Of a DNA stretch of 64,000 bases, positions 34,818-53,067 are shown in pieces. A program made the position numbers and the translations under genes. The stretch covers positions 256,001-320,000 of the forward strand of contig CAVYCN010000004.1 of assembly GCA_963767005.1 (NCBI GenBank), written 5' to 3'. Source of the stretch: an uncultured Actinomycetes bacterium. GTDB lineage: Bacteria; Actinomycetota; Thermoleophilia; UBA2241. Under the pieces are notes generated by a model that was given only the letters and a program-made list of their open reading frames with translations, was not told where the DNA came from and made no database searches. Each line of letters starts with the position of its first letter. Positions within the stretch are counted from its first letter, which is position 1.

Positions 34818-36698
34818 TCAGTCGGCGTTCCGCGCGACGGCGAAGGCGCCCGTGTGGTCGACGACCGCCCACGCGGTGTGCGTGGCGGGGTCGACGCCGT
34901 AGGCGCCGAGGCCGTAGCCCGCCTCCCAGGGGCCGACGACGGACTTGGGCGTGCCGCCCGCGTTCGCGTCGACGGCCTTCACCCAGCGGCCGCTCGCGTC
35001 CATCGCCACGAGCGTGAGGTCGTGGCCGTGGCAGCCGCGGTAGCTCAGCGAGAGCGCATAGGTGTCGCTCTTCGAGGCGCCCACGTCGGACAGGCCCCAG
35101 AGCGTGAAGACGTTGCTCGCGAGAACGTCGCGCGAAGTGTCGCAGCTCCAGCCGGTGGTGACGTCCTTGGTGAAGGCACGACCTTCGGAGTCGGTGGCCG
35201 TGCTCGTGTTCGTGCCGCCGAGGATCTGGGCCGTCGTGCCGCCGAAGCTGTCCTTGACCGTCGTGTACGGCTTGCCCTCTGGCACGAAGAACTCCTTGCC
35301 CTTCAGGCCGTAGCCGAACGACTCTTCCTTCACGAAGTTGAGGTAGGGCGTGCTCGCGATGGTGTACTCGCTGTGGTTGCTCGCCAGGGTCGGGTTGCTC
35401 ACCGGCGCAGCGTAGTAGTCGACCGTGACGTTGGCGCCGTCGACCGTGACGATGTAGTAGCCGACCTTGTTCAGGTCCTGGGCGATCGGCGTCTCACGGG
35501 TGTTGCCGGTGAAGGGCTGGCCCGCGCCGGTCAGCCCCTGGGCCTTCGCCAGGGCGACATCGAACAGGTAGTCGTTGGTCTGCGTGGGATCGGCCTTGGT
35601 CAGGTAGGGCGTGCCGTCCGTCACCGTGGCCGAGCTGCCGCTGCCCGTGATCGTCTGTGTGGGTGCGCCGATCTCGCCGTAGGGCAGGTAGTACTTCGAG
35701 GCGTCGGACTGGCAGACGATGTCCTGGACGCTCGACTTGCCGTCGGGGCTCGTGTCGACGGCGCGGTTGTACATGTGGTCGTGGCCGCCGATGTAGTAGT
35801 GCACGCCGGCCTTCTGCAGGTCGCTGATGAAGGTGTCCTGCAGGGCGGGCTGCTGCAGCGGGTTGGCGCCGAACAGGTCGTCCTGGTGGCTCTGGGTGAT
35901 GATCCCCTTGTGGGCGAAGACGAAAGCCTGGGTGCCAGCCGGGCGGCTGGTGAGCTCGCTGTTCATCCAGTTCACGTCGTCGGCCGTCAGGGCTTCGTGA
36001 GCCGGCACGGTCGTGTCGGGGCTCGTGAACTGATCGACGAAGACCAGGCGGGCGTTGCGGTAGTCGACCGCATAGTCGAGGCCGGCGAAGCCCTTGGGGG
36101 CCGCGTTGGTCACGACCGCGCCGCACTCGAAGGGCTCGCTCAGCACAGACGCGAACGGCTGCAGGGGATCGTTGCCGGTGGGGTTGAAGGCGCTCGACGG
36201 CGTGGTGCTCATGACCCCCGTCTGCGTCTGTGGATAGTTGGCCACGAGGGCGGCGCCCTGGCCGTCGTCGTGGTTGCCGCTCACGGGGTAGAAGCCGATG
36301 CCGGCGTTGTAGAGATCCTGCGCGAAGGCGGCGCGGGCAGCCTCATTGGCGGCCGAGCCGGTGTCGACGAGGTCGCCGACCTCGACCACGAACTTGACGT
36401 TCTTCTGGATGAACTGGTTGTCGAGCTGGCGGGCGATGTCGACCGAGCAGGTGAACGGGTTGCGGCCGTCGTCGGCCACTGTCCACTGCGTGTCGGCCTC
36501 GATGCCGAACGACCAGGCTTTGCTCGAGCGAACGTAGCTCGAGTCGGCGCACTTGAGATGCGTGGGCAGCACGCCGCGGCCGAACGGCTGCACCGACGCT
36601 GCGGCGCCCGCCGGCGAGCCGGCCAGAGCGACCAGACCGGCGCTCGCCATCACGGCGACGCCCGCGAGCAGCGCCGTCGCCTTTGCCATCCTCTTCAC
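34818..36698 (-). CDS. Secreted calcineurin-like metallophosphoesterase
   Basis: Signal peptide; ADTQW, VGDLVD, GNHD, FAHK, GGHDH. Confidence 0.88.
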   Translation of the reverse strand: MKRMAKATALLAGVAVMASAGLVALAGSPAGAAASVQPFGRGVLPTHLKCADSSYVRSSKAWSFGIEADTQWTVADDGRNPFTCSVDIARQLDNQFIQKNVKFVVEVGDLVDTGSAANEAARAAFAQDLYNAGIGFYPVSGNHDDGQGAALVANYPQTQTGVMSTTPSSAFNPTGNDPLQPFASVLSEPFECGAVVTNAAPKGFAGLDYAVDYRNARLVFVDQFTSPDTTVPAHEALTADDVNWMNSELTSRPAGTQAFVFAHKGIITQSHQDDLFGANPLQQPALQDTFISDLQKAGVHYYIGGHDHMYNRAVDTSPDGKSSVQDIVCQSDASKYYLPYGEIGAPTQTITGSGSSATVTDGTPYLTKADPTQTNDYLFDVALAKAQGLTGAGQPFTGNTRETPIAQDLNKVGYYIVTVDGANVTVDYYAAPVSNPTLASNHSEYTIASTPYLNFVKEESFGYGLKGKEFFVPEGKPYTTVKDSFGGTTAQILGGTNTSTATDSEGRAFTKDVTTGWSCDTSRDVLASNVFTLWGLSDVGASKSDTYALSLSYRGCHGHDLTLVAMDASGRWVKAVDANAGGTPKSVVGPWEAGYGLGAYGVDPATHTAWAVVDHTGAFAVARNAD

Positions 36699-36903
36699 GG
36701 TTCCCTCCCGAGTCACTTGCAGGGCTTGCGGCATGAGCGGTCGGCCTGCGCGCCGGCGACGCGCGCACCCCCCTCCTTTCGCTCGCACCGGCTCCTCTTG
36801 CCGGAGCCGGGTCTCGCGTCGCGACGCGGCGACCGGGCGTCTCCCACCCGGCTCGTCGCGCACGCCCGCAGGGCGACCAGCGAGGCAAGGCTAGAGGGCG
36901 GCC

Positions 36904-36953
36904 GCGAGCTTTCGATGAGGGTCGGGGAAGGTTGGCGTTACGCCGTGGTTGCG
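36904..36953 (-). promoter_or_regulatory. Degenerate PHO-box-like 11-nt repeats
   Basis: Minus-strand CGCAAC/CGTAAC/CCTTCC/CCTCAT/GCTCGC at 11-nt period. Confidence 0.4.
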
Positions 36954-37050
36954 ACCGCCGCTCCTGTCGCCGCCCCCGTCGCTTCGCCAGTTCGGGCGGT
37001 GCGAGCATGCAGTGAGCAGGTCGTTGCGGCGTCGCCGCCGCGATGCTCAC

Positions 37051-37078
37051 GCTCACGTTTTCCTCACCATGCGCTCAC
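37051..37078 (+). promoter_or_regulatory. PHO-box-like repeats
   Basis: GCTCAC (37051), CCTCAC (37062), GCTCAC (37073). Confidence 0.7.
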
Positions 37079-37157
37079 ATCAGCCGGGTAGAGTGCCCGC
37101 CGGGAATCCGCCGGCCGGGCCAGGCCTTGCCGCGTAACGACGTCCTGGAATGAAAGG

Positions 37158-38120
37158 GTGGCAACGTTGCTGCACACACGCTACGGGCGCAGCCTGCTCC
37201 TGGTCGTGCTCGGCCTGGCGGTGGCGGGCGGCGCGCTCTGCGTCGGCGCACCCGTGGCCCGCGCGGCCCTCGGTCCGCAGCAGATCGACGCCTTCCTGCT
37301 CGAGCAGGGATCGCCGCTTGCCGGGGAGGGAGAAGCCTTCTACCTCGCTGCCGAGCGCAACGGTGTCGACCCCGCCTTTCTCGTCGCCATATCCGGCGCC
37401 GAGTCGAGCTTCGGCCGGTTCCTCTTCTCGAGTGGCTCCCTGACGGCCACGTACAACGCCTTCAACTGGTTCTACGCACCCACGCGGGCCGGCAGCGCCT
37501 TCGCGAGCTGGAGCGAAGCGATCGACACGGTGGCGGCCGGCTTGCGCGGCCCCCTCTACTACGGCGCCGGTCGCTACAGCGTGGCGGCGATCGCTCCGGT
37601 CTACTGCCCGCAGGGCACGCAGGACTGGGTGACCAACGTCACGCTGTACATGCAGGAGCTCGGCGCCGACCCCGCGGACACCCGCTGGCCGGCGGCGACA
37701 CTCGGCGCCGGCGCGACCAGGAGCGCCGCGGTGACGCTGGCCGGGTCGGGCGGCGCGACGCTCGTCGTCGAACACCCGATCACCGTCGTGCCTCGGCGGG
37801 TCGCGGCCGGCACCCGCGTGCGCATCCGTTTCACGCTCACCGACGGTGGCCTCGCGGCCGAGACCTGGCAGGCCGTCGTCCTGCGCCTCGAAGGACCGGG
37901 CGGACAGGAGCTCGCCCTTGGTACCCGTGCGCCGCTAAGGCTCGGCGCGGGACGCTCCTTCGCCTTCGTCGCGAGCCTGTGCCTGACGGCGGCGGGCCGC
38001 TGGCGCGGCTGGATCGACGCGCAGACGCAGGCCGGCGCGCTGGTGAGCCGTGCCCGGCCCGTCCTGTGGGTCGAGGTCGCGGCCGCCTCAGGCCGCGCTG
38101 CGCGGCGCGACGACCGGTGA
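37158..38120 (+). CDS. Secreted glucosaminidase/lysozyme-like protein with C-terminal Ig-like domain
   Basis: GSPLAG, GVDPAFLVAISGAESSFG, YNAFNW, IAPVYCP. Confidence 0.7.
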   Translation: MATLLHTRYGRSLLLVVLGLAVAGGALCVGAPVARAALGPQQIDAFLLEQGSPLAGEGEAFYLAAERNGVDPAFLVAISGAESSFGRFLFSSGSLTATYNAFNWFYAPTRAGSAFASWSEAIDTVAAGLRGPLYYGAGRYSVAAIAPVYCPQGTQDWVTNVTLYMQELGADPADTRWPAATLGAGATRSAAVTLAGSGGATLVVEHPITVVPRRVAAGTRVRIRFTLTDGGLAAETWQAVVLRLEGPGGQELALGTRAPLRLGAGRSFAFVASLCLTAAGRWRGWIDAQTQAGALVSRARPVLWVEVAAASGRAARRDDR

Positions 38121-38900
38121 GCCGTCGCGCTCCTCGACGTCGCGTCGCCAGGGCAGGCGCTTGCCGACGGTCGCGCGCAGCTTGAAGCGGAGCGATTTGT
38201 CTTCGAGCGCGAGAGCCTCGCGCAGCCCGGCGAGACGCCTGACCACCGCGGCCCGCTGCGCCGCCGGGACGTCGTAGCGCGCCACTGCGGCGACCGTGTC
38301 GAGGTTGGCGCAGACGTCGACGAAGGTACCCCAGTCGCGGGCGCAGACCTGGGCGATGCGGCGCATGCAGATCGAATGCTCGTCGTCGCTCTCGCTGAGC
38401 GGCAGGTCCTTGAGCAGGCCGATCACGTCGTGGACGTCTTTGTCGGCGAGGCGTCCGATCTGCAGCTTCGAGAGCAGCACGTCGGCCGGCGAGATCGCCC
38501 ACGGGTCGATGTCGAGCCGGCCGCGCAGGTCGATGTCGTGGTCCATACGGATCACGTCGAGGAACACGTCGACGTGGTCAGCCGGGTCGAGCGTCCGCAC
38601 GAACTGGAGCTGACCGCCGGCCGTCGCCTCGGCGACGTGCCGGTTCTCGGCGTAGCCCTCACGCGCGAGGGCGCGAGGCAGCCGTGCGGCCTCCGCGGAG
38701 GAGCCGACCACGTCGATGTCCGAGAACTCGCGCGCCATGAAGGTGCGGTCGACGGCGTAGCGGTAGGCGGCGAGGCCACCGGCGAGCCGCAGACGCACCC
38801 CATCGTGGGCTGCCTCCTCGATGAGCGTGAGCGCGTGCGCGAGGCGGCGATCCGCGGCGTGCCTGCGCGCCGTCCGGTCGCTGTCGTCGCTCGAGGACAT
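38088..38900 (-). CDS. Putative nucleotidyltransferase-superfamily protein
   Basis: LRLAGGLA...SDIDVVG, VDVFLD, LLSKLQI, KDVHD; GGAGGAG RBS. Confidence 0.65.
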   Translation of the reverse strand: MSSSDDSDRTARRHAADRRLAHALTLIEEAAHDGVRLRLAGGLAAYRYAVDRTFMAREFSDIDVVGSSAEAARLPRALAREGYAENRHVAEATAGGQLQFVRTLDPADHVDVFLDVIRMDHDIDLRGRLDIDPWAISPADVLLSKLQIGRLADKDVHDVIGLLKDLPLSESDDEHSICMRRIAQVCARDWGTFVDVCANLDTVAAVARYDVPAAQRAAVVRRLAGLREALALEDKSLRFKLRATVGKRLPWRRDVEERDGSPVVAPRSAA

Positions 38901-39128
38901 GCTCCTCCCGTCGGTCGGTCGTCTCGGGGCCGTTCGTCCGGCCCCACGGTCGTCCACTCGCAGTGTCGGCGCCCCGCGTTGGCTCGACATGAAGGACGCG
39001 TGAGTTTGCGGCGACCGCGCCTGGGCGGGGCTCGCGCGCCGGCGCGCCATCGTCCGCGTTCCGCGGGAGGATGCGACGAGCGGCCGCCCGTCGGTCAGGC
39101 ACTCGCAGGCGGCCGTTCGAAACGAGTC

Positions 39129-39178
39129 GCTAACGGAGCGCTCACCGACGTCTCTCACCGCGCTCATCGAGCGCTAGC
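39129..39178 (+). promoter_or_regulatory. PHO-box-like repeats
   Basis: GCTAAC/GCTCAC/TCTCTC/GCTCAT/GCTAGC at 39129, 39140, 39151, 39162, 39173. Confidence 0.7.
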
Positions 39179-39238
39179 GACGATCCGTCAGACTGGCGTG
39201 ACCCACGGGGGACGAACGTCCGAAGGAGAGATGGCAAG

Positions 39239-40873
39239 GTGAAGGGCTCGCGCAGGCGCCGGGTCGGCGCCAAGCCGGCGCTGCCGCTGGCCGTCTTCCT
39301 CGCGGCCGTCGCGGCGGTGGCCGTGTCGCACCCCGCTTGCGCGTGGGGAAAGGCTCGCTGGCTGGCGGGCGATCTCAGCACCGGCACCTACCTCACCGAC
39401 GGCAGGACCAGTGAGCACGTCATCGTGTCGAAGGTCATGGCCGACGATGCGTCCGGCTTCGGGCTCCGCTACCTGGCGAACGCCGAACCGGGCGGCCGAT
39501 CCGAGCGGAACGCCGCGGGCGTCAGGTTCACGCTTCCCGTGTGGCGCTGGCAGACGCTGATCTTCGAGTCGTTCCCGCAGATCGTCGCGGCGCGTCAGGC
39601 GCATCCCGACGATTACTTCATCCAGGGACTGCAGTGGGACGCGCCGACGCACGATCAGGTGACCGTGGGCATCGTCGGCAGCGCCAATGAGCCGCAGGCG
39701 GTCGCGGATTTCGAGTACAGGTTCGACGCGGCCGACACGGACACGAGCCGGTCTGACGAGAGCAAGCAGAACACGACGGCGCAGGACGCCTTGAAGGCGG
39801 CCTCCTGGCTGCAGAAGAACTACGCCGCGTCCAGCTACGCGTTCGTCGATCACCCCTCGCGTGACCTGGCGTGGACCGTGGGCGACCTGCGCGCCCTGCA
39901 GGACGCCGCGCCGTCGGTGGTGTGCGGCTTCGAGGGCTTTCCCGGCGATCAGGCGGCCGGCGCGCGAGGCGGCTACGGCGGCTACTTCGACGTGAGCGGC
40001 CACGAGGTGAGCGATCCCGCCGCGGCTGACCCGGTCGAGACGGCGCGTGCTCGCACCTACGGCGGCGCCGACGCGATGGTCGCGAAGGTGGGCGGCGTGT
40101 GGGACGCGCTCCTGGGTGAGGGCCGTCGCTGGTTCGTGTACGGCGACAGCGACTTCAAATGGTGGACGACGAGCTACAAGGACCAAAGCGGCAAGGTGGT
40201 GGGCTCCTCGTACTGCGACTTCTGGCCGGGCCAGTACGGCAAGACCTGGACCTGCGTGCCGAGGAGCGGCTACGGCGGTCTCGTGGCCGCCATCAAGTCG
40301 GGCGACTCGTTCATCGTGAACGGTGACCTCATCGACGCGCTCGATTTCCACGCCGCCTGCGGCAGCACCTCGAAGACGATGGGTCAGACGCTCACGGTCG
40401 GCAAGGGTCGCAGGATCGTGGTCACCATCCGCGTCAAGAGTCCGGCGAAGAACCACGACGGCCGCAAGGTGCACCCCGACCACATCGACCTGATCGCGGG
40501 TGCTGTCACAAGCCGGATCGCACCCTCGAGCCCGGCCTACCCGACACGGGACACGAACCCTACGGCGCACGTGGTGGTGAGCTTCCCCTGGGCGAAGATG
40601 CGCGTCATCAAGGGCTGGCGCGTGGCGACGGTCGCCTTCGTGCTGAAGAAGCGCATGTACTTCCGTCTGCGGGGCACCAATCTGGCGTGCGGCACGACCA
40701 ACCAGACGGATGCATCCGGCGATCCCCTGATCGACACCCTCAGTTACCAGACGCTGCCGAACCCGGACCCCGCGCAGGTCGCGGCGCAGCCGACGGTGAC
40801 CATCAACACGCCCAAGCAGGCCTGGGCCGACCTCTGGTTCTACAGCGACCCGGTCTTCGTCAAGGTCACGTGA
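39239..40873 (+). CDS. Secreted PHP-like phosphoesterase homolog with degenerate metal ligands
   Basis: WLAGD..., DHPSR, GFEGFPG, YGGAD.MVAKVGGVWDALLGEGRRW, DFWPGQY, YFRLRGTN, DLWFYSDP. Confidence 0.7.
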   Translation: MKGSRRRRVGAKPALPLAVFLAAVAAVAVSHPACAWGKARWLAGDLSTGTYLTDGRTSEHVIVSKVMADDASGFGLRYLANAEPGGRSERNAAGVRFTLPVWRWQTLIFESFPQIVAARQAHPDDYFIQGLQWDAPTHDQVTVGIVGSANEPQAVADFEYRFDAADTDTSRSDESKQNTTAQDALKAASWLQKNYAASSYAFVDHPSRDLAWTVGDLRALQDAAPSVVCGFEGFPGDQAAGARGGYGGYFDVSGHEVSDPAAADPVETARARTYGGADAMVAKVGGVWDALLGEGRRWFVYGDSDFKWWTTSYKDQSGKVVGSSYCDFWPGQYGKTWTCVPRSGYGGLVAAIKSGDSFIVNGDLIDALDFHAACGSTSKTMGQTLTVGKGRRIVVTIRVKSPAKNHDGRKVHPDHIDLIAGAVTSRIAPSSPAYPTRDTNPTAHVVVSFPWAKMRVIKGWRVATVAFVLKKRMYFRLRGTNLACGTTNQTDASGDPLIDTLSYQTLPNPDPAQVAAQPTVTINTPKQAWADLWFYSDPVFVKVT

Positions 40874-40938: not shown

Positions 40939-40977
40939 CCTCGCGCCATGCTCACCGCGCGCTCACGGCGCGCTCAC
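40939..40977 (+). promoter_or_regulatory. PHO-box-like repeats
   Basis: CCTCGC/GCTCAC/GCTCAC/GCTCAC at 40939, 40950, 40961, 40972. Confidence 0.75.
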
Positions 40978-41005
40978 TCGAGCTGGGTATCGTGCCGTGA
41001 CGCTG

Positions 41006-42701
41006 ATGGGCGACCCGATGCGGATGAACGACGAGCGGTCCGGACGGCGGCCGTTGCGGGTGGTGAGCGGCCGGCCGCGCCGCAGCGCGCGACGCGCAGC
41101 CCAGGTCCGACGCCGCCGGTTCGTCGCGCTCACCGTCATCGTGCTCGGGGGCCGGCGTGCTGTTCGCGAGCGGCGCTCTGCGGGCCGGCGCGGCGACGCC
41201 GCCGGGCGCCGGCGCGACGCTCGCCTCGATCGCCGGCACGACGACCGGCGACGTGTTCGACCAGCCCTCGGTGACGGCCAACGACGCGACGGCGAGCGGC
41301 GGCCGCCGCTCGTCCGACCTGGCGTTCCGTGACGGTGCGGCCAGCGTCAGCTCGACCCTGGTAGGTAGCGCGCTCCACTCCGAGAGCGATGTCTCTCTCA
41401 GCGACGTCAGCCTGCTGGGCGGCGTCGTCACGGCCGATGCCGTCGAGCTCGTGGCCACGGCCGACGCGAGCGCGCACTCGGCCGACGCCGGCATCGACGG
41501 CAGCTACGTGAGCGGCCTCTCGTCGACGGTCAGCCGGTGAGCGACGAGGAGCTTTCCGGCCCCATCGCCGTGCCCGATGTCGGCACCCTGACAGTGCTCA
41601 GCGCCGCCATCGACGCGAGCGCGCCGTCGCCGAGCGCGACCATCACCGGCCTTACGCTCGTGCTCGATCAGCAGGTCGACGGCCTGCCGGCCGGCAGCGT
41701 CGTCACGGTCGGCAGCGCGGTCGCGTCGGCCGACGCCGCTACCGCCGGCGAGCTGATCAAGATCGCGGCCGAGACGACCGGCCCCACGCCCTTGCCGGCG
41801 CCGACGCCCACCCCCAGCGCGGCGTCCACGTCGAAGGCCAAGCACTCACCCAGCGGCTCGACCGGGAGCGGCGGCTCGGCGACGGGCTCCTCGGGTGGCA
41901 GCGGCGGATCGGTCACCTCGATGCCGGCGCCGTCGGCGCCCAGCAAGGCGGTGCTCGACCGGTTCCCCGGGGCGGTGTTCCCGGTGCGCGGGCACGGTCG
42001 AGTTCACCGACACGTTCGGCGCCTACCGCGCAGACATAAAGGGGCACCGCCACGAGGGCAACGATCTCTTCGCGAAGATGGGCACGCCGATCGTCGCGGT
42101 GCTGGCCGGCACCATCGAGTACAGCACCTACGGGATCGGCGGCAACAACGCCCGCCTGACCGACGCGGCCGGCGACTACTTCTACTACGCACACATGGAG
42201 CGCTTCGCGGCAGGCCTGAAGACGGGGGACCATGTGGCCAAGGGACAGGTGATCGGCTACGTGGGTGAGACCGGCGACGCCGCCGGCACGTCGCCCCATT
42301 GCCACTTCGAGATCCACCCCGGCGGCGGCGCGGCGATCGACCCCTACCCCTACCTGCAGGCCTGGCGCGCCGCCGGCGCCGGGATCGGTCCCATCGACGC
42401 GACGACGCCGGTGGCCACCATCGTGGCGGCCGGCGTCGGCATCCCGCTCGCCGAGATCCTCGCCCGCCGGGGCGTGCTCGCCGTCGAGGCGAGCACGGCG
42501 CTCGCCGGCGGGCGCCGCGTCGTGCCGCGCGACGAGCCGGCCGGGGGCGTGCTCGAGCTGGTCCTGGCCGTGTCGTCGCTGGGCGGTGTCGCCGCGCTGC
42601 GGCGCCTGCGCGCGCCGGCGCTCCCCGAGCTGCTCGCCGAGCACGAGACCGTCGTGCGGCGCACCGTCGTGATCGCCGAACGCTCGCTCACGAAGTCTTA
42701 A
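41006..42701 (+). pseudogene. Membrane-anchored M23 peptidase broken by three single-base frameshifts (or assembly errors)
   Basis: HEGNDLF, YYAHM, IGYVGETG, HCHFEIHP; frame changes at ~41150, ~41520 and ~41991. Confidence 0.75.
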
Positions 42702-42718
42702 CGTTTCGTCGCTATACT
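42686..42718 (+). promoter_or_regulatory. PHO box plus -10 upstream of phoB
   Basis: GCTCAC (42686), CTTAAC (42697), TATACT (42713). Confidence 0.65.
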
Positions 42719-42760: not shown

Positions 42761-43465
42761 ATGGCCAAGGAATCGATCCTCGTCGTCGACGACGAGCGTG
42801 AGATCCTCGAGCTGGTCAAGTACAACCTGACCAAGGAAGGCTACAACGTGGTGTGCGTCGAGACGGGCGAGGACGCCCTGAGCGCCGCGCGCCTCAAGCT
42901 GCCCGACCTGGTCCTGCTCGACCTCATGCTGCCCGGCGTCGACGGCCTCGAGGTGTGCCGCAAGCTCAAGGCCGACCCCAAGACGCAGGAGATCCCGGTC
43001 GTCATGCTGACCGCGAAGGGCGGCGAGGCCGACATCGTGGCCGGCCTCGAGCTGGGCGCCGACGACTACGTCACCAAACCCTTCAGCCCGCGTGTGCTCA
43101 CGGCGCGCATCAAGGCCGTGCTGCGGCGCGACCAGACCGAGGACGGCGACGGCCAGTCGACCGTCAAGATCAAGGACCTCGTCATCCACCCCGGTCGACA
43201 CCAGGTGCTCGTCGCCGAGCGGCCCGTCGACCTCACCGCGTCGGAGTTTCGCATCCTGCTGTTCATGGCGCGCAAGCCGGGCTGGGTGTTCACGCGTCAG
43301 CAGATCGTCGACGCCGCACAGGGCGATGACGTCTACGTCAACGAGCGCTTCGTTACCGACCGCTCGGTCGACGTGCACATCGTCTCGCTGCGCCGCAAGC
43401 TCGGACCGTGCGGCGGCTACATCGACACGGTCAGGGGTGTAGGCTACCGGCTCAAGGACGAGTGA
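42761..43465 (+). CDS. phoB: PhoB/PhoP OmpR-family response regulator
   Basis: VVDDE, LDLMLPG, GADDYVTKPFS, RSVDVHI, TVRGVGY; pst context. Confidence 0.88.
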   Translation: MAKESILVVDDEREILELVKYNLTKEGYNVVCVETGEDALSAARLKLPDLVLLDLMLPGVDGLEVCRKLKADPKTQEIPVVMLTAKGGEADIVAGLELGADDYVTKPFSPRVLTARIKAVLRRDQTEDGDGQSTVKIKDLVIHPGRHQVLVAERPVDLTASEFRILLFMARKPGWVFTRQQIVDAAQGDDVYVNERFVTDRSVDVHIVSLRRKLGPCGGYIDTVRGVGYRLKDE

Positions 43466-43503: not shown

Positions 43504-45312
43504 ATGCGCCACACTCCGCTGTTCTGGAAGCTGTATCTGACCTACCTCGTCGCCGTCGCGCTGTGCGCCGGCGTCGTAGGCTGGTTCGCGGTCGGCACCG
43601 CCTCCGATCTCTACCACCAGCAGGCGGTGAGCGACCTCCACTCGCGCGCCGAGCTCGCCGCGGGCCAGCTCTCGCCGCTGCTCGAGCACCCGCTGCAGCT
43701 GCAGACGCTGGTCCGGCAGCTCGGCTCGAGCGCCGACACGCGCCTCACCGTGATCGCCGGCCCGGCGAGCACCGTGGGCGTCGAAGGCAAGGTGCTCGGC
43801 GACTCCGAGCACGACCCCGCCACCATGGCCAATCACGACACATCCGACCGGACCGAGGTGCTCGCGGCGCTGGACGGCACCGTGGGCGAGAGCGTGCGGC
43901 GCAGCGACACGCTCGGCATCCGCATGTTCTACGTGGCCGTGCCCGTCTTCGACGCCGGCCACCACGTCGAAGCGGTCGTGCGCACGGCGCTGCCGGTGTC
44001 GCAGGTCAACAGCAAGCTCAGCGTGATGCGCGGTCGCATCATCCTCGGCGCGCTGATCGTCGCCCTCGCCATGGCGCTGCTCGGCTACCTCGTGTCGCGT
44101 GGCATCTCCGGTCGCATGCGGGCGATCAAGCGCGGTGCCGAACGCTTCGCCGCCGGCGACTTCGGTCACGAGATCCACGTCACCGATCTCGACGAGATCG
44201 GTGAGGTGGCGACGGGCCTGAACGCCATGGGGCGGCAACTGTCCGAGACGATCCGCGCGATCACCGAGGAGCGCAACGAGCGTGAGGCGGTGCTCAGCGC
44301 CATGACCGAGGGTGTGCTCGCGGTCGACGGACAGGAGCGCGTGATCACGATCAACGCTGCCGGCGCCGGCCTCCTGGGCGTGACGCCTGAACAGGCCCAT
44401 GGCCGCAGCATCCCGGAGGTCGTGCGCAACCCCGAGCTCCAGGCCTTCGTGGCCGCCGTGCTGGCCGGGACGGAGCCCATGGAGGACCACATCGTGCTGC
44501 ACGGCGACGAGGAGCCGCGCGAGCTGCGCGTGCACGGCGACCAGCTGCGGGACAGCGACGGCGAGACCGACGGCGAGGGTCGCGGCGCCGTCATCGTGCT
44601 GAGCGACATCACCCGCATGCGGCGCTACGAGGCGGTGCGCCGCGACTTCGTGGCCAACGTCTCGCACGAGATCAAGACGCCGGTCACCACCATCAAGGGC
44701 TTCGCCGAGACCCTGCTCGACGGCGCGCTCGACGATCGTGCCGACGCCGAGCGGTTCCTGCGCATCATCGTCGGGCAGGCCGACCGCCTGAGCGCCATCA
44801 TCGAGGACCTCCTCAGCCTTTCGAGCCTCGAGGGCGGTCCCGACGACGTCGCGATCACGCTCGAGCGGGGCAGTATCCGCGACGTGCTGCAGGTCGCCCT
44901 CGACGTCTGCGAGATGAAGGCGACGGCACGCGACATCCGGCTCGAGCTCGACTGCCCCGACGATCTGTTCGCCGACATCAACGCGCCGCTGCTCGAGCAG
45001 GCCGTGGTCAATCTCGTCGACAACGCGGTGAAGTACAGCCCCGAGGGCTCGACCGTGGCCGTCTCGGCGGGGATCGAGGCGGCCGGCCTGTCGATCAAGG
45101 TCGAGGATACCGGGCGGGGCATCGGTCGCGACCACCTCTCCCGCCTGTTCGAGCGGTTCTACCGGGTCGACAAGGCGCGCAGCCGCGACATGGGCGGCAC
45201 AGGCCTCGGCCTCGCGATCGTCAAGCACATCGCCGCGGCCCACAGCGGCTGGGTGGCCGTCGAGAGCACACCCGGCGCGGGCAGCACGTTCACCATCACG
45301 CTGCCCGTCTGA
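43504..45312 (+). CDS. phoR: PhoR sensor histidine kinase (HAMP-PAS-HisKA)
   Basis: FVANVSHEIKTP, NLVDNAVKY, FERFYRVDKARSR, GGTGLGL. Confidence 0.9.
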   Translation: MRHTPLFWKLYLTYLVAVALCAGVVGWFAVGTASDLYHQQAVSDLHSRAELAAGQLSPLLEHPLQLQTLVRQLGSSADTRLTVIAGPASTVGVEGKVLGDSEHDPATMANHDTSDRTEVLAALDGTVGESVRRSDTLGIRMFYVAVPVFDAGHHVEAVVRTALPVSQVNSKLSVMRGRIILGALIVALAMALLGYLVSRGISGRMRAIKRGAERFAAGDFGHEIHVTDLDEIGEVATGLNAMGRQLSETIRAITEERNEREAVLSAMTEGVLAVDGQERVITINAAGAGLLGVTPEQAHGRSIPEVVRNPELQAFVAAVLAGTEPMEDHIVLHGDEEPRELRVHGDQLRDSDGETDGEGRGAVIVLSDITRMRRYEAVRRDFVANVSHEIKTPVTTIKGFAETLLDGALDDRADAERFLRIIVGQADRLSAIIEDLLSLSSLEGGPDDVAITLERGSIRDVLQVALDVCEMKATARDIRLELDCPDDLFADINAPLLEQAVVNLVDNAVKYSPEGSTVAVSAGIEAAGLSIKVEDTGRGIGRDHLSRLFERFYRVDKARSRDMGGTGLGLAIVKHIAAAHSGWVAVESTPGAGSTFTITLPV

Positions 45313-45582: not shown

Positions 45583-46650
45583 TCACCAGCAGGGCTTGCT
45601 GCCGGCCTTGATGCTGGAGTGCCAGACCTTCTCGATCGCCGTGATCGCCTTGCTCGGCAGCGGCACGAAGGTGAGCTTCTTGGTGTCGCTGACGCCCGTG
45701 CTGCTCTTGAGCGCCCAGTTGAAGAAGGTGAGCATGGCGTGCGCGTTCGCGTAGCTCGACTGGCTGCGGCGCACGAGGATGTACGTCTCGCCCGTGATCG
45801 GCCAGGCCGTCGTGCCCTTCATGTTCTCGAGGTTGGTGGCGAAGCCGTTCGTCCACGTGTACGAGGCGTGAGAACCGGCGGCGGCGAAGCTCTTCTCCGA
45901 CGGCTGGACCCAAGCACTCGAGGCGTTCTTCATCTGCGCGTAGGCGATGTGGTAGTTGACGGCCCAGCTGTACTCGTCGTAGCCGATCGAGTACGGCCTG
46001 GTCTTGACCGCGTTGGCCACGCCCGACGACTTGGCATAGCCAAGGCCGGTGGGCCAGCTGATCAGCATGCCCTGCTTGGTCCAGCCCGAGTAGGCCTTCT
46101 TGAGGTACATGGTGAAGATGTAGGTCGTGCCCGACTTGTCGGAGCGGTGAATGACCGTGATGGGCTTGGCCGGGAGGGTCAGGCCCGGGTTGATCGCCTT
46201 GATGCGACTGTCGTTCCACTTGGTGATCTTGCCCAGGTAGATCTGCGCCAGGACGGCGCCGGTGAGCTTCAGCTTGCCGGTCTTGGCGCCCATGTTGACG
46301 ATGGGCACGATCCCCTCGATGCACGAGGGAAACTGGACCAGCTGAGGCGACCCGTTCAGCGTTGGCGGGGTCCCGCCGGAGCGCGCCAGGGGCTGGTCGC
46401 TCGCGCCGAAGTTCACGGTGCCGGCCTCGATGGCGTTGATGCCCGCGCCCGAGCCGACTCCCTCGTAGATGACCTTGGCCGTCTTGGTGTAGTTGGAGGC
46501 CCACTGCTGGTAGAGGATCTGGGGCGCAGTCGCGCCGGCGCCGGTGATCGTCGGCACGGCGAAGGCCGCCGATGCGAAGACCAGCATGGCAAGCCCGACA
46601 CCGAGAGCGATGCCGCCTCGCACAGGCCATGATCTTGCCGATAGTCTCAT
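45583..46650 (-). CDS. pstS: Phosphate-binding protein PstS (secreted, basic paralog)
   Basis: GAGAT, YEGVGSGAG, FGASD, HRSDKSGTT, WPITG. Confidence 0.9.
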   Translation of the reverse strand: MRLSARSWPVRGGIALGVGLAMLVFASAAFAVPTITGAGATAPQILYQQWASNYTKTAKVIYEGVGSGAGINAIEAGTVNFGASDQPLARSGGTPPTLNGSPQLVQFPSCIEGIVPIVNMGAKTGKLKLTGAVLAQIYLGKITKWNDSRIKAINPGLTLPAKPITVIHRSDKSGTTYIFTMYLKKAYSGWTKQGMLISWPTGLGYAKSSGVANAVKTRPYSIGYDEYSWAVNYHIAYAQMKNASSAWVQPSEKSFAAAGSHASYTWTNGFATNLENMKGTTAWPITGETYILVRRSQSSYANAHAMLTFFNWALKSSTGVSDTKKLTFVPLPSKAITAIEKVWHSSIKAGSKPCW

Positions 46651-46726
46651 CCTTCTCTCTCCTTTGCTCTGGTCCCGCGCCCTTGTGCGCGGCTCCGACT
46701 AACGCAGCCGACTGTAGAGAGCCGAC

Positions 46727-46754
46727 GTGAGCCGGCAGTGAGGGGCCGGTGAGC
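46727..46754 (-). promoter_or_regulatory. PHO-box-like repeats
   Basis: Plus-strand GTGAG at 46727, 46738, 46749 (GCTCAC/CCTCAC/GCTCAC on the minus strand). Confidence 0.75.
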
Positions 46755-46960: not shown

Positions 46961-47956
46961 TCAGTTGGTGTAGTCGAACTCGTCGACCGGCGCGTTTGCC
47001 GTGCTCTGACCGGAGGCGTTGGTGACGAGAACATCCGCTGTGCCACTGCCGGCCGGCACGACGGCCGTGATGGTCCCGTCATCGACGACGGTGACGTCGG
47101 TGGCGGGGGTCGAGTCGAAGTCGACCTCGGTCGTGCCCGTGAAGTTGCTGCCCGCGATCGTGACGCTGTCGCCGGCCACGCCGGTGGCGGCGCCGGTGAC
47201 GGGATCCTTCGTGTTGGTGGTGGTATCGGTGACGCTCGTCACCTTCGGGAGCGACGACGTCGACGGTACGGTGAAGGTGTACCCGGCGTACATCGACGGC
47301 AGCGCCCACCCCGCCGGGGTCAGGACCGACACGTACAAGGAGGTGTTGGTGTTCGGGACCAGTGGCGTGTAGGCCGGAGAGGTGGCTGTGATCGTCGTGT
47401 CATTGACGACGGTGACGTTGGTGGCCGGGTCGAGGCCGAACCAGACGGCGGTCGCGCCCGTGAAGTAGGTGCCGGTGATCGTCACGGCCGTGCCACCGGT
47501 CATCGGGCCCGAAGTCGGGGCCACGAGCGTGATGTTCGGCAAGGGCAGGCGGTAGGTGTAACGTGCGGCCTTCGCTGCAGCGCTCATGGCGCCGGACTTG
47601 CCGACGACCCGCACCAGGACGGCGCCGGTGGCGTGGCTCGGTGCCATGACCGTGATCTTCCCCGCCGAGACCACGTGCACGTGGCTCGCGGCCTTGGTGC
47701 CGAAGAGGACCTTCTTGACCGCGCTCTTGCCGCCGCTCATGAAGTTCTTGCCGGTGATGGTGACCGTGTTGCCGCCGGTGGTCGGGCCGCTCGCCGCGCG
47801 GACGTGGGTCACGACCGGGCCGGCCGCCGCGAAGGCCAGGCCGGCCGAGGCCAGGCTGACGATCGCCAGCGCGACGAGCGCGAGCGTCAGCAGGCAGAGC
47901 GCGACCGGCCGCGCGCGTCGAGCCGATGGATGGAGTGTGCCGTTGCGTGTCCTCAT
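46961..47956 (-). CDS. Secreted protein with three IPT/TIG domains
   Basis: Repeats of P.VT...SGPTTGG.TVTITG.NF ... V.FG ... IT...P. Confidence 0.85.
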   Translation of the reverse strand: MRTRNGTLHPSARRARPVALCLLTLALVALAIVSLASAGLAFAAAGPVVTHVRAASGPTTGGNTVTITGKNFMSGGKSAVKKVLFGTKAASHVHVVSAGKITVMAPSHATGAVLVRVVGKSGAMSAAAKAARYTYRLPLPNITLVAPTSGPMTGGTAVTITGTYFTGATAVWFGLDPATNVTVVNDTTITATSPAYTPLVPNTNTSLYVSVLTPAGWALPSMYAGYTFTVPSTSSLPKVTSVTDTTTNTKDPVTGAATGVAGDSVTIAGSNFTGTTEVDFDSTPATDVTVVDDGTITAVVPAGSGTADVLVTNASGQSTANAPVDEFDYTN

Positions 47957-48074
47957 CTTCTTCCCTTCGTGTTGCCCTCGCGCTTGGTGCGCCCCTCGGC
48001 TAGGCGCGCGACGAGGCCGGCCAGCGGCAACGACGTCGCGTCAGGGCCTAGCGCGCTGACTCTAGTGAGTCGAT

Positions 48075-48102
48075 GTGAACCGGACGTGAGCGCCGTATGA
48101 GT
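48075..48102 (-). promoter_or_regulatory. PHO-box-like repeats
   Basis: Plus-strand GTGAAC/GTGAGC/ATGAGT at 48075, 48086, 48097. Confidence 0.65.
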
Positions 48103-48255: not shown

Positions 48256-48294
48256 GCTCACGGCAAAAACACCGGTCGCTAACAGGGCGCTAAC
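48256..48294 (+). promoter_or_regulatory. PHO box of pstSCAB
   Basis: GCTCAC/AAACAC/GCTAAC/GCTAAC at 48256, 48267, 48278, 48289. Confidence 0.75.
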
Positions 48295-48365
48295 CCGGCG
48301 ACGGTAACTTCTCGCCCGGTGGCCGACGGCTGCCATCGTCCAGGGAAGGGACAAGGAGACCGTTG

Positions 48366-49472
48366 ATGAAGAGATCGAGAAGGTTCTGGTACGCAGTGGC
48401 CTTGGGTCTGGTCGCTCTTGTGGCGGCGGTCGCGCTCGCCGCCTGCGGCAACTCGAACTCGGGCACGTCGAGCAGCTCGAGCCCGTCGTCGGGCTCGGGT
48501 GGTGGCAGCAGCCTGCTCGGCTCTGGCTCGACCTTCGCCCAGCCGCTGTATTCGGCGTGGGCCCAGACCTACCAGGGCGTCGCGGGCGTCAAGCTGAACT
48601 ACCAGGGCGTGGGTTCGGGCACCGGCATCGCCAACATCGAGGCCAAGACGGTGCAGTTCGGCGCCACCGACGCGCCGCTCACCGAATCCGATCTGCAGAG
48701 CAACTCGCTCGTACAGTTCCCGACGGCCGTGGGCGGCACGGTGGTGATCGTCAATCTGAGCGACGTGCCGAACGGCAAGCTCGTGCTGAACGGTCCCACG
48801 CTCGCCAACATCTACCTCGGCAAGATCACCAAGTGGAACGACGCGGCGATCAAGGCCCTGAACCCCGGACTGACCCTGCCGTCGACCGCCATCCACGTGG
48901 TGCATCGCTCCGACAGCTCGGGCACGTCGTGGATCTTCACGAGCTACCTCTCCGCGGTGTCGCCCACGTGGAAGAGCCAGGTCGGCGCCGACAAGTCGCC
49001 CACCTGGCCGGTAGGGGCGGGCGGCGCCAAGAGCGCCGGCGTGGCCGCTCTCGTGGAGCAGATCAAGGGCTCGATCGGCTACGTCGAGTACTCGTACGCC
49101 AAGCAGAACGACATCAGCACCGCGCAGATGGTGAACGCTGCCGGCAAGACCCTCGTGCCGACACTGGCGGGCTTCGCGGCGGCCGCCAAGAACGCGACCT
49201 GGGACCCGAACCAGGGCTTCGCGCTGGCGATCGTCAACGAGTCCGGGGCGACCGCCTGGCCGATCACCGGCGCGACGTACGCCCTGGTGCAGAAGGACCA
49301 GCCCAGCGCCGCGACCGGCAAGATGATCCTCAAGTTCTTCGACTGGGGTTACAAGAACGGCGCCAGTCAGGCGCAGAGCCTGGACTACGTGCCGATCCCG
49401 GCCAGCGTCTACAGCGTGGTCGAGCAGCAGTGGTCACAGATCACGGCGGGCGGCAGCCCGGTGTGGCCGTGA
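48366..49472 (+). CDS. pstS: Phosphate-binding lipoprotein PstS
   Basis: Lipobox LAACG; GSGSTF, YQGVGSGTG, FGATD, HRSDSSGTS. Confidence 0.95.
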   Translation: MKRSRRFWYAVALGLVALVAAVALAACGNSNSGTSSSSSPSSGSGGGSSLLGSGSTFAQPLYSAWAQTYQGVAGVKLNYQGVGSGTGIANIEAKTVQFGATDAPLTESDLQSNSLVQFPTAVGGTVVIVNLSDVPNGKLVLNGPTLANIYLGKITKWNDAAIKALNPGLTLPSTAIHVVHRSDSSGTSWIFTSYLSAVSPTWKSQVGADKSPTWPVGAGGAKSAGVAALVEQIKGSIGYVEYSYAKQNDISTAQMVNAAGKTLVPTLAGFAAAAKNATWDPNQGFALAIVNESGATAWPITGATYALVQKDQPSAATGKMILKFFDWGYKNGASQAQSLDYVPIPASVYSVVEQQWSQITAGGSPVWP

Positions 49473-49493
49473 TCTGATCGCACGCAGGCGGCG

Positions 49494-49527
49494 GCGGGCG
49501 GCGAAGCCCTTGGGCTTCGCCGCCCGC
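49494..49527 (+). terminator. Intercistronic hairpin after pstS
   Basis: gcgggcggcgaagccc-tt-gggcttcgccgcccgc. Confidence 0.65.
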
Positions 49528-49571
49528 TCGTCGCGTTTCGGAGAACCGACGACTCACAGGCGGGTCCGGAG

Positions 49572-50564
49572 ATGAGTACAGTCGAGGCAGAGACAGGAAG
49601 ACAGCCGGGCGGGGCCGGCGCGCAGACCCACGCGCGGCGTCACCACTTCTCGTGGGGCGACCCGCTCTTTCGCTGGTTCACCGTCGCCTGCGCGGCGGCG
49701 GTGGCCCTCGCGATGGTCCTGCTCGTCGGGGTGCTGCTGAAGAACTCCTGGCTGGCGATCCACACGCTCGGCTTCAAACCCCTCACGCACGTCGCCTACG
49801 CGCCGCCGGACACCTATGGTGCCTGGTCGAGCCTCATCGGGACGTTCGTGACGACGATCATCGCCATGGTCATCGCGGTGCCGCTCGCCCTGGCCATCGC
49901 CCTGCTGCTGGTCGAGCTCGTGCACCCCATCGTGTCGCGGGTCGTCGGCACGACGATCGAGATGCTCGCGGCCGTGCCCAGCATCATCTTCGGCATGTGG
50001 GGCCTCTGGATCGTCGTCCCGCTCATGTACAACCACGTGGAGCCCTGGATCCAGGCGACCCCGCTCGGTCGGCTGGCGCTCTTCGGCGGCACGCCGTACG
50101 GCACCGACATCTTCACGGCGGGCGTCGTGCTCAGTCTCATGATCCTGCCGTTCGTCACTGCCGTCTCGCGCGACGTGCTGAAGATGGTGCCGACCGTCAC
50201 CAAGGAGGCGGGCTACGGCATGGGGTCGACCACCTGGGAAGTCATGCGCAAGGTCAGCATGCCGTACGCCCTGTCGGGCATCGCCGGCGCGGTGTTCCTG
50301 GGGCTCGGCCGGGCCCTCGGCGAGACCATGGCGGTGGCGCTGATCATCGGTGGCGGTTTCACCGGCTTCCCGCACAGCCTGTTCGCTCAGGGCACCACAG
50401 TGTCGGCCACGATCGCGCTCAACTTCGGTGACGCCACGTCGAAGCTCGAGACGAGCATGCTCATCGAGCTCGCGCTCATCCTGTTCGCCATCACCATGGT
50501 GTTCCAGGCGCTCGCTCAGCTCTGGCTGGCGCGCGCTCGCCGCATGTCGGGGAGCCGGGCATGA
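49572..50564 (+). CDS. pstC: Phosphate ABC permease PstC
   Basis: MLAAVPSIIFGMWG, LGLGRALGETMAV. Confidence 0.95.
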   Translation: MSTVEAETGRQPGGAGAQTHARRHHFSWGDPLFRWFTVACAAAVALAMVLLVGVLLKNSWLAIHTLGFKPLTHVAYAPPDTYGAWSSLIGTFVTTIIAMVIAVPLALAIALLLVELVHPIVSRVVGTTIEMLAAVPSIIFGMWGLWIVVPLMYNHVEPWIQATPLGRLALFGGTPYGTDIFTAGVVLSLMILPFVTAVSRDVLKMVPTVTKEAGYGMGSTTWEVMRKVSMPYALSGIAGAVFLGLGRALGETMAVALIIGGGFTGFPHSLFAQGTTVSATIALNFGDATSKLETSMLIELALILFAITMVFQALAQLWLARARRMSGSRA

Positions 50565-50595
50565 GCGCCGACAGCATAGGCTCCGCCGGCCTCCC

Positions 50596-51465
50596 ATGAA
50601 GCGGCGCAACGTGGCCGGCCGGAGGCTCACGAACAGGCTTGTCACGACCGGTGCCTGGGTCGCGGCGACGATCGGCATCTTCGTGATGGCCTGGATCGTC
50701 TACACGGTCGTCAGGCGCGGCATCGGCGCCTGGAACCTGGACTTCTTCACGAAGACGCCGCCGCAGGGTCAATGGTTGTCGGGCCACGGCATCGCGAACT
50801 GCATCGTCGGCACCATCCTCATCACTGGCGGTGCGGCTATCGTCGGCCTGCCGCTCGGCTTCTTCGGCGCGATCTACCTGTCGGAGTTCGGTCGCACGGG
50901 GCGCATCGCCACGGTGATCCGCGCCATCACCAACATCGTGCTCGGCGTGCCCTCGATCATCGCCGGCCTGTTTGCCTACGGCCTGATCGTGGTGACCCAG
51001 CACCACTACTCGGGCTTCGCCGGGTCGTTCGCCCTCATGTTCATCATGCTGCCGGTCATGACGCGCACGGCCGAGGACATTCTGAACCTGGTGCCCAACG
51101 AGCTCCGCGAGTCGGCCCTCGCCATGGGCGTGCCCCGCTGGCGCGCGACGCTCGGCGTGGTCGTCAAGGCCGCGCGCGGCGGCCTGATCACCGGCGGTAT
51201 TCTCGCCGTAGTGCGCGTCGCCGGCGAGACCGCGCCCCTGCTGTTCACCGCCCTCAGCAGCCCCTACTGGGTCACGGCGCGCGGGTCGTCGAGCTACTTC
51301 GGCGGCCCGACGGCGAACCTCACGAAGTTCATCTGGGACTACTCCAACGACCCGGATCCCCGCATGGTGCAGATGGCCTGGGGCGCGGCGCTGCTGATCA
51401 TCGTCGCCGTGCTCGGCGCCAACGTCCTGACAAGGCTTCTCTTTCAGCGAGGCAAGGAATGGTAG
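50596..51465 (+). CDS. pstA: Phosphate ABC permease PstA
   Basis: [33 protein letters not shown]. Confidence 0.93.
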
Positions 51466-52334
51466 AGCTCATGGACACGACCGAACCAGGCGCGCCGCCC
51501 CCGGTCGCCAGGCCGTTGCCGCCGCGGCTCGAAGTGACCACCCAGGGCGGCGGTCACGAGGCGGCCGAGTTCGACGCGTTGCCCAGCAAGCTGTCGGTGC
51601 GCGGCCTGAACTTCTTCTACGGCAAGGAGCAGGCGCTCTTCGGTAACGACCTCGACGTCAAGGAGCACCGCGTCACCGCGATCATCGGCCCGTCCGGCTG
51701 CGGCAAGTCGACTCACCTGCGCTGCTACAACCGCATCTACGAGCTCTACCGGGACCAGAAGGCCTCGGGCGAGATCGTGCTCGACGGTGAGAACATCCTG
51801 GCGTCGGGCACCGACCTGCTCGGCCTGCGTCGGCGCGTGGGCATGATCTTCCAGAAGCCGAGCCCGTTCCCCATGACCGTGTTCGACAACGTCGCTTACG
51901 GTCTGCGCATGCACTTCAAGCTGTCGCGGTCGGAGCTCGCCGAGCGCGTCGAGGACGCCCTCAAGCGCGGCGCCCTGTGGGACGAGGTCAAGCACAAGTT
52001 GAACGAGCCCGGCCTCGCCCTGTCCGGTGGTCAGCAGCAGCGCCTCTGCATCGCGCGCGCGATCGCCGCCGAGCCCGAGCTCATCCTCATGGACGAGCCC
52101 TGTTCGGCGATCGACCCGGTCGCCACGGGCAAGATCGAGGAGCTCGTCCAGGAGCTCAAGTCGTCGTACACGATCGCTCTGGTCACCCACAACATGCAGC
52201 AGGCCGCCCGCGTGTCCGACTACACGGCCTTCTTCTTCGAGGGCCGCATCATCGAGTTCGGCGCCACGACGCAGATCTTCGAGAACCCACTTCAGAAGCA
52301 GACAGAGGAATACATCACCGGCCGCTTCGGCTGA
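51459..52334 (+). CDS. pstB: Phosphate ABC ATPase PstB
   Basis: [42 protein letters not shown]. Confidence 0.97.
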
Positions 52335-52347
52335 TCCAGGGGAGTCC

Positions 52348-53067
52348 ATGGCGACACAGCTACAGCGCGAGATCGGCAACCTGAAGAAGAGCATCCTCAC
52401 CCTGAGCGCCCTCGTCGAGGACAATCTGCGGCGCGCCTTCGAGGCCACCGAGCGCCGCGACGAGGCCCTCGCCACCGAGGCCATCGAGCGCGACTTCCCG
52501 ATCGACGTCATGGAGGTCGACGTCGAGGAGGACTGCCTCAAGGCGCTGGCCCTCTACCAGCCGGTGGCCGGCGACCTGCGTTTCATCGTCACCACCATCA
52601 AGATCAACACCACGCTCGAGCGCGTCGGCGACCTCGCCGTGAACATCGCCGAGCGCGCCCGGGAGCTGGCCGGCCTCGATCAGCCGGTCATGGCCTTCGA
52701 CATGACCGGCATGGCGGGCAAGGCGCAGCGCATGGTGGCAAGCGCCCTCGACGCGCTGGTGCGCTCCGACGCGGGCCTGGCGCGCGCCGTCCTGTTGGCC
52801 GACGACGAGGTCGACGACCTCGACCGCGAGATGACCGCCCGGCTGCACGAGGTCGTGCGCGAGCACCCCGAGTGGTTCGAGCCGGTCATGCAGCTTCTGC
52901 AGATCTCACGCTTCATCGAGCGCGTGGCCGACCACGCGACGAGCATCGCCGAAGACGTCATCTACATGGTCGAAGGCGAGATCCCGCGTCACTCGGTCAA
53001 GCGCGCCGTGGCCGAGGCGATGGGCTTCAACGGCACGACGACGCCGCCGAGCTCCCGGCTGGGCTGA
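52348..53067 (+). CDS. phoU: Phosphate signalling protein PhoU
   Basis: YQPVAGDLR, LERVGDLAVNIA, IERVADHATSIAE. Confidence 0.95.
   Translation: MATQLQREIGNLKKSILTLSALVEDNLRRAFEATERRDEALATEAIERDFPIDVMEVDVEEDCLKALALYQPVAGDLRFIVTTIKINTTLERVGDLAVNIAERARELAGLDQPVMAFDMTGMAGKAQRMVASALDALVRSDAGLARAVLLADDEVDDLDREMTARLHEVVREHPEWFEPVMQLLQISRFIERVADHATSIAEDVIYMVEGEIPRHSVKRAVAEAMGFNGTTTPPSSRLG

Follow-up and report, generated by a model that had tools for sequence, protein, structure and literature searches.

A variable Pho-regulon island in a Thermoleophilia genome places genes for peptidoglycan hydrolases, phosphoesterase-fold proteins and a non-lipidated PstS behind one tandem-repeat promoter design

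In Prochlorococcus, flexible phosphate islands are found around the pst and phoBR genes. The phosphate islands of HIMB59 keep a fixed position and carry variable cargo around pstSCAB-phoU and phoBR (PMC10734472). Tandem 11-nt direct repeats lie at pstS and at the regulator's own operon in Pho regulons, and it is textbook knowledge that PHO boxes have an 11-nt period and units that differ between species (PMC4415409, PMC1906773; for D. vulgaris, PMC3333781). The wall response of PhoPR in Bacillus subtilis comprises the tag/tua switch, the action of PhoD and GlpQ on teichoic acid, and yocH through WalR (PMC13403408, PMC7299342), and PhoP of Streptomyces coelicolor activates the wall-polymer clusters SCO4873-4881 and SCO6021-6025 (PMC3479208). 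Here, we describe an 18-kb island at positions 34818 to 53067 of a 64,000-nt stretch of DNA (the window; G000:C4:256001-320000, contig CAVYCN010000004.1, 71% GC) from an uncultured Thermoleophilia bacterium (assembly GCA_963767005.1, here G000; 3.44 Mb, 100% complete). An initial annotation had read the island as an extended Pho regulon in which one 11-nt-periodic box precedes phosphatase, wall hydrolase and surface protein genes. We compared it with a set of 89 family genomes, in which g1 is the genus of G000 and g2, g6, g7, and g10 are further genera; these relatives share ancestry and are not independent, and all counts of orthologues and boxes are descriptive.

The island encodes, in this order, a metallophosphoesterase (MPE, −), a GH73-like protein (+), a nucleotidyltransferase-like protein (−), a PHP-like protein (+), an M23 peptidase (+), PhoB and PhoR (+), a second phosphate-binding protein, PstS2 (−), an IPT/TIG protein (IPT, −), and PstSCAB-PhoU (+). 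Its nine promoters share one Pho-type tandem-repeat design, in which two to five (G/C)CT(A/C)A(C/T) units with an 11-nt period end exactly 10 nt before a −10 hexamer. Tandem boxes oriented with the downstream gene are indeed present upstream of every gene for which they had been claimed; the constant 10-nt gap between the last unit and the −10 hexamer had been missed. The positions given in the initial annotation mark the first or last unit of an array at 48256, 46727, 42686, 48075, 37051, 39129, and 36904, but 40939 is a degenerate unit of the M23 array, whose strong units start at 40950, and the units of the weak nucleotidyltransferase set, which does exist, lie at 39005-38978 (38989-39016 in the initial annotation).

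In the phoB and pstS upstream regions of 23 relatives, a single design was found as well: two (G/C)CT(A/C)A(C/T) hexamers 11 nt apart, 10 nt, and TAnnnT. A promoter model trained on 40 phoB and pstS sites of relatives, with G000 and all accessory genes excluded, gave 11 sites above 19 bits in the 3.44-Mb genome. With ten decoy spacings, no such site was found in nine cases and two sites in one case, and five order-5 Markov genomes had 1, 0, 0, 0, and 0. Six of the 11 strong sites lie inside the island (binomial P ~1e-11), so that the proposed scan of a motif model against background bears out the clustering. They precede pstSCAB-phoU (48256..48310, +; up to four units; 28.8 bits, rank 1 in the genome), phoBR (42686..42718, +; two units; 28.5 bits, conserved family-wide), GH73 (37051..37094, +; three units; 25.9 bits), M23 (40950..40993, +; three perfect units; 25.4 bits), pstS2 (46711..46754, −; three units; 24.7 bits), and IPT (48059..48102, −; three units; 24.2 bits). 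The three weaker promoters are those of MPE (36888..36942, −; four degenerate units; 13.8 bits), PHP (39129..39194, +; five units in a single 11-nt register; 12.9 bits), and the nucleotidyltransferase-like gene (38962..39005, −; three units; 8.4 bits). These sites are too weak on their own, and we accepted them because most orthologues carry a site at the same offset. With this model, which is independent of G000, all nine promoters were among the 18 best-ranked of 2,406 upstream regions of G000 that had been called crudely. Strict hexamer chains at 11 nt occur nine times in the genome, five of them in the window. Exact hexamer pairs are not enriched at 11 nt genome-wide in G000 (12 pairs, compared to 13 to 25 at several multiples of 3), and the evidence therefore rests on the full promoter model.

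The remaining five strong sites precede a 264-aa HTH/HNH-repeat protein gene (25839..26708, +; promoter at 25839-25871, site at 25850; 22.6 bits), which has an orthologue within the island of G007, two hypothetical genes, a protease gene, and a hairpin element on contig C18; the last site may belong to another regulator. The protease is a secreted A4/G1 enzyme with an Ig domain (L164:836-2215, −). One hypothetical protein has 133 aa and looks helical (L166:1173-1574, −); it has homologues within the islands of relatives and no match in the protein-cluster atlas. The other is a 144-aa membrane protein (L165:1207-1641, −). A site at ppk (10.5 bits) was not counted because of its poor −10 hexamer.

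The synteny check that had been proposed confirms the recurrence of the sites upstream of island orthologues. The 11-nt direct repeats at pstS and phoB are kept in relatives, and in 12 of 12 further genomes with a phoB region, none of them used in training, the phoB site scores 23 to 30 bits. Within g1, sites above 8 bits precede GH73 (9/9), pstS2 (9/9, at 13 to 25 bits), IPT (6/6), PHP (7/9), the island copies of MPE (5/6, these above 10 bits), and the nucleotidyltransferase-like gene (4/6); at GH73, pstS2, and IPT, box spacing and distance to the −10 hexamer are kept while the flanking DNA diverges. Throughout the family, phoBR-pst keeps its place behind a HAD gene, and variable, shuffled cargo fills two intervals, one from HAD to phoB and one from phoR to pstS. 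Boxed cargo in relatives includes genes for a fasciclin lipoprotein, an ArsC-like protein, a Ppx/GppA exopolyphosphatase, and a GNAT acetyltransferase (L026:8195-8677, L029:18483-18944, L144:10295-11977, L005:10501-11145); the exopolyphosphatase gene in G067 is boxed at 24.2 bits, and arsC-like genes are boxed in G014 (21.6 bits) and in G000 itself (14.4 bits). A second, divergent pstSCAB-phoU set with its own boxes is inserted in the island in G003 (L005-L006), G002 (L009-L010), and G058 (L152).

The presumed regulator is encoded next to its targets. An OmpR-type response regulator (42761..43465, +) and a sensor kinase with HAMP-PAS-HisKA-HATPase domains (43504..45312, +) are encoded beside the pstS (lipoprotein), pstC, pstA, pstB, and phoU operon (48366..53067, +), whose products all exceed their NCBIfam cut-offs. 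In g10 and g6, a D-amino-acid-dehydrogenase-like FAD oxidoreductase gene is divergent from phoB (L146:18048-19304, L155:7486-8802, L158:7367-8839, and others); it is absent there in g1.

Both hydrolase genes carry strong boxes, as the initial annotation had stated. The protein taken there for a glucosaminidase-like enzyme (37158..38120, +; signal peptide, C-terminal Ig-like domain) reached only 17.6 bits against Pfam PF01832 (cut-off 30.2), and Foldseek with the whole predicted model (pLDDT 83) returned Ig-domain matches only. Structure alignment confirmed a GH73 fold: with VIA-align, the glucosaminidase domain of a Clostridioides difficile endolysin (8yxk) gave a Z score of 14.3 (rmsd 2.8 over 130 residues) and LytB (7pj3) a Z score of 13.9 (rmsd 2.3 over 124 residues). 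Furthermore, Glu82 is present in at least 90% of 97 homologues and aligns with the Glu of 8yxk, 5wqw, and 3vwo. GH73 occurs in 69 of the 89 family genomes and is mostly single-copy. For the copies outside g1, 21 of 60 genomes were fetched and 19 were scored, two loci being dropped for a short upstream region and a bad slice. None of these 19 copies is boxed (best score −1.5 bits), and a plain −10 promoter is found instead. Eight of the genomes with an unboxed GH73 do have a site at phoB or pstS, and since the gene is boxed in 9 of 9 cases in g1 and in 0 of 19 elsewhere despite such sites, we infer that GH73 moved into the island and gained its box in this single genus. Its single-copy state and plain promoter in the other genera fit an autolysin of the cell's own wall that was recruited to PhoB.

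The M23 gene (41006..42701, +) stands less firmly as a hydrolase of the regulon: it is boxed and its zinc motifs HxxxD and HxH are present, but it carries three frameshifts in G000, near 41150, 41522, and 41990. In eight relatives it is one long open frame, in one case cut by the contig end. In a check of the frameshifts, one contig of depth 2 with ~95% identity had an extra base at one site. The other G000 genes that were compared each align to G011 in a single frame, which favors real decay of M23 over an assembly error. Hydrophobic segments at both termini (topology read by eye) make the protein look membrane-anchored. A box of its own precedes M23 in G000, G006, G007, G008, and G012, and the gene lies directly behind PHP without one in G011, G002, and G003. 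The boxed gene adjoins PHP beside phoBR in g1, g2, and g10; in g10, it lies next to PHP between HAD and phoB in all seven genomes with an M23 match. None of 12 scored paralogues outside the island is boxed (best score 2.3 bits); three loci without an upstream region or a catalytic match, and G090, were left out of this scoring. In the tree, the island copies of g1 group together with support (99/98) and separately from those of g10, which gives no support for a common origin of the two boxed sets. The last codons of M23 overlap the two phoB boxes (42686-42702) with the stop codon inside the second, an arrangement also seen in seven genus relatives.

Boxes were likewise confirmed for both genes with phosphoesterase folds, but only one product looks like an active enzyme. 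MPE (34818..36689, −; 623 aa) is a secreted calcineurin-like protein (PF00149, E=2e-8, over the cut-off) with all five metal-binding motifs present; it had no significant match among solved structures. The PHP-like protein (39239..40873, +) is also secreted and has the PHP barrel fold (top match 3e38, E=1e-5); in the protein-cluster atlas it falls into unnamed clusters plus DUF3604 (28% of members). We take the metal ligands of this family to be HxH, H, E, H, and DxH. Compared to intact homologues, the substitutions H47S, H49G, H84P, E132Q, and H307K remove five of the predicted ligands. All nine g1 copies lack most of these ligands, which are kept in 8 of 10 island-type copies of g10 and in 31 of 31 distant homologues (P0210-P0240). 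The g1 protein is thus probably not an active phosphatase but a pseudo-phosphatase. The cytoplasmic nucleotidyltransferase-like protein (38088..38900, −) matched PF14907 below the cut-off (E=0.002).

PstS2 (45583..46650, −) belongs to the PstS family (TIGR00975, 288 bits compared to a cut-off of 205), and its phosphate-binding motifs align. Its description as non-lipidated holds: the lipobox cysteine is absent in G000 and in nine of nine g10 copies. The protein is basic, with a pI of 9.8 in G000 and 9.6 to 10.2 across g1, g2, g7, and g10. IPT (46961..47956, −) is a secreted protein with three PF01833 domains, of which domain 1 is basic and domain 3 acidic. Each of the six regions with an IPT gene also has PstS2, and in G008 both have relocated together. 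None of 15 longer PstS2 homologues has a TIG domain on record, which is weak evidence. In G008, the sequence of the IPT promoter and leader is close to that of pstS2 promoters (81 and 91 of 125 positions, compared to 45 to 62 when boxed promoters are unrelated), and an orphan promoter of the pstS2 type is left there. As predicted, boxes precede the pst, phoBR, pstS2, and IPT genes alike. A signal peptide that lacks a lipobox is found in GH73, MPE, PHP, PstS2, and IPT, and both PstS2 and the M23-PHP pair persist across genera at ~40 to 55% identity.

In sum, we consider the locus a Pho-regulon island of flexible content, with PhoB as the likely driver of both a remodeling of the cell's own wall and secreted phosphate scavengers, a reading to which we give a probability of roughly 0.6. 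In our model, PhoR, informed by PstSCAB-PhoU, would phosphorylate PhoB, and PhoB~P would bind the units, which would stand in for a −35 element, as at other PHO boxes (PMC4415409). The core promoters of phoB and pstS have mostly CTAAC units, with CTAAC adjoining the −10 hexamer, and the accessory promoters have three to five, mostly CTCAC, units and may respond to deeper starvation than the core. PstSCAB would drive uptake, and PstS2, being basic, would adhere to the anionic wall and capture phosphate there, while MPE, and PHP where intact, would hydrolyze phosphoesters outside the cell. A membrane-tethered M23 and GH73 would loosen or turn over the wall, which would ease the passage of enzymes of 55 to 65 kDa and free wall polysaccharide that is attached by phosphodiesters, a minor source of phosphate. 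In G000, the M23 arm would be broken and PHP likely inactive.

Several observations speak against this reading. PhoB and PhoR are under their curated cut-offs, although PhoB is the best family match (TIGR02154, 252 bits compared to 296). The M23 boxes of g10 are three degenerate units with 2.5 to 13.4 bits, the PHP-M23 operon of the g1 members G002 and G003 has no credible box (5.0 and 2.5 bits), and MPE of G002 has none (0.7 bits). The cargo is mixed and partly decayed, with M23 frameshifted in G000 and MPE truncated in G011. Furthermore, the box may repress rather than activate.

The chemistry of the wall bears on what the hydrolases could be for. In the complete G000 genome, no match was found for TagF (PF04464), GDPD/GlpQ (PF03009), PhoD (PF09423), PhoA, PhoX, sulfatase/LtaS, or LicD, and positive controls gave matches; TagF is found in only 2 of the 89 family genomes. 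The presence of four LCP genes, an SLH-domain protein gene, and rml genes suggests a secondary wall polysaccharide linked by one phosphodiester per chain, and phosphate of the own wall would be a small store. Release of phosphate from teichoic acid walls, which the initial annotation had offered, finds no synthesis or degradation family in G000 and is unlikely to be the main purpose, since in addition the ligands of PHP are lost and M23 is frameshifted.

A related explanation is wall mining, in which secreted hydrolases and phosphoesterases would free phosphate from the walls of dead or neighboring bacteria and PstS2 on an IPT scaffold would capture it. The common box of five proteins with signal peptides and no lipobox, the coupling of M23 to an intact PHP in g10, and the intact motifs of MPE would agree with it, as would the stripping of wall teichoic acid phosphate by PhoP-induced PhoD and GlpQ in B. 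subtilis (PMC13403408). However, those enzyme families have no match in G000, PHP is degenerate throughout the genus, M23 looks membrane-anchored, and GH73 is an ordinary single-copy gene of the family, and we regard wall mining as unlikely. Alternatively, the side of phoB might be an insertion hotspot at which copied promoter cassettes gave rise to a loose starvation response without a common function. The pstS2-like IPT promoter and the orphan promoter of G008, the shuffled gene order, the broken or unboxed copies, and cargo such as GNAT, HTH-HNH, fasciclin, and small hypothetical genes all point this way. Indeed, with GNAT, the HTH-HNH protein, small hypotheticals, and the A4/G1 protease among its members, the boxed set is a mixed regulon rather than a single dedicated machine. 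Against such hitch-hiking, spacing and −10 distance are kept at GH73, IPT, and pstS2 in every genus copy despite diverging flanks, and the M23-PHP pair and PstS2 persist across genera, which leaves it improbable. A second OmpR-family regulator, e.g., for envelope stress, that reads the CTCAC arrays and leaves only the CTAAC units at phoB and pstS to PhoB would suit the different unit types and the at least three other OmpR-type regulators of G000, but it is very improbable, as phoB and pstS promoters mix both types (22 of the 80 training units have C at the variable position), pstS2, a true PstS gene, has CTCAC-type units only, and the spacing to the −10 hexamer is identical in all promoters.

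A bolder reading would see an undescribed, PhoB-driven extracellular module of Thermoleophilia, in which hydrolases open walls, phosphoesterases cut wall-polymer phosphate, and a strongly basic, soluble PstS at the wall surface, on an IPT scaffold in one genus, captures the product; PHP of g1 would have become a pseudo-enzyme that partners M23, and the regulon would have newly taken in a housekeeping autolysin. We hold this as a doubtful proposal. The island itself provides a precise, testable Pho box and regulon where the literature searched gave none for this actinobacterial class, and it does so for an organism whose genome yielded no classical alkaline phosphatase. It also offers a case of regulon rewiring with built-in controls, with GH73 boxed in a single genus and a duplicated M23 with boxed and unboxed paralogues. 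The Pho-boxed peptidoglycan hydrolase genes, the conserved basic non-lipidated PstS, and the conserved probable pseudo-phosphatase are targets for work on wall reshaping in cells without teichoic acid.

Some elements outside the island should be mentioned. SpoIID/LytB (−) and NlpC/P60-SLH (+) genes come after pstSCAB-phoU; for both, as for HAD, the scan of G000 with the promoter model found no upstream site above 3 bits, and they were left out of the boxed set. A conserved motif that is not a Pho box (core TGCCGAYAGC, window ~54950-54985) lies upstream of SpoIID/LytB in most family members, and a weak three-unit array of 7.5 bits (25156-25210, +) precedes an unannotated short region. Two paralogous hairpin elements (loci L173 and L174; G000:C18:111915-111828 and C4:226184-226097, both −) share 23 identical bases, and each lies behind three to four TTAA-type repeats with an 11-nt period and a −10-like hexamer; they had no Rfam match and may be small RNAs controlled by PhoB or by a different regulator of the OmpR type. 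At the window edge, a gene for an MttB trimethylamine methyltransferase (1-1073, −) has an in-frame TAG at 90-92, beyond which the frame continues for ~160 codons. As an Rfam PYLIS_3 match (1-92) and a PylS C-terminal match over the cut-off (G000:C3:236183-236905) were also found, the organism likely uses pyrrolysine.

Compared to described systems, the boxes of the island are 11-nt direct repeats like the PHO boxes of Escherichia coli (CTGTCAT), S. coelicolor (GTTCACC), and cyanobacteria (CTTAACCT). The known PhoBR/PhoRP regulons differ from it in that the family has its own unit, (G/C)CT(A/C)AC, at a constant distance of 10 nt from the −10 hexamer, that no PhoA, PhoD, PhoX, or GlpQ was found in the genome, and that peptidoglycan hydrolase genes are directly boxed. 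Several other families of the Thermoleophilia have GTT(A/C)AC-type repeats at pstS, which score at most 9.4 bits under our model (12 loci). The literature searched held no description of this box or of Pho-boxed GH73 or M23 genes, and subscription journals and regulon supplements could hold cases. To that extent, the statement that the system was not recognized as described stands, but Pho control of the wall and variable phoBR/pst islands have been described (PMC3479208, PMC13403408, PMC10734472). The island resembles the PhoPR system of B. subtilis in that phosphate starvation is linked to the turnover of the wall and to phosphoesterases that are secreted (PMC13403408, PMC7299342); it differs in that the autolysin gene yocH is induced independently of PhoP there, whereas the hydrolase genes of the island have their own boxes, and in that teichoic acid, GlpQ, and PhoD genes were not found in G000. 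With PhoP of S. coelicolor it shares an actinobacterial Pho regulator with envelope gene targets (PMC3479208), but those targets are biosynthetic clusters, whereas the targets here, grouped next to phoBR, encode hydrolases and binding proteins that are secreted. Compared to phosphate islands of the HIMB59 type, the cargo here includes GH73, M23, an IPT protein, a probable pseudo-PHP, and a PstS that is basic and soluble, and most of these genes have a box of their own.

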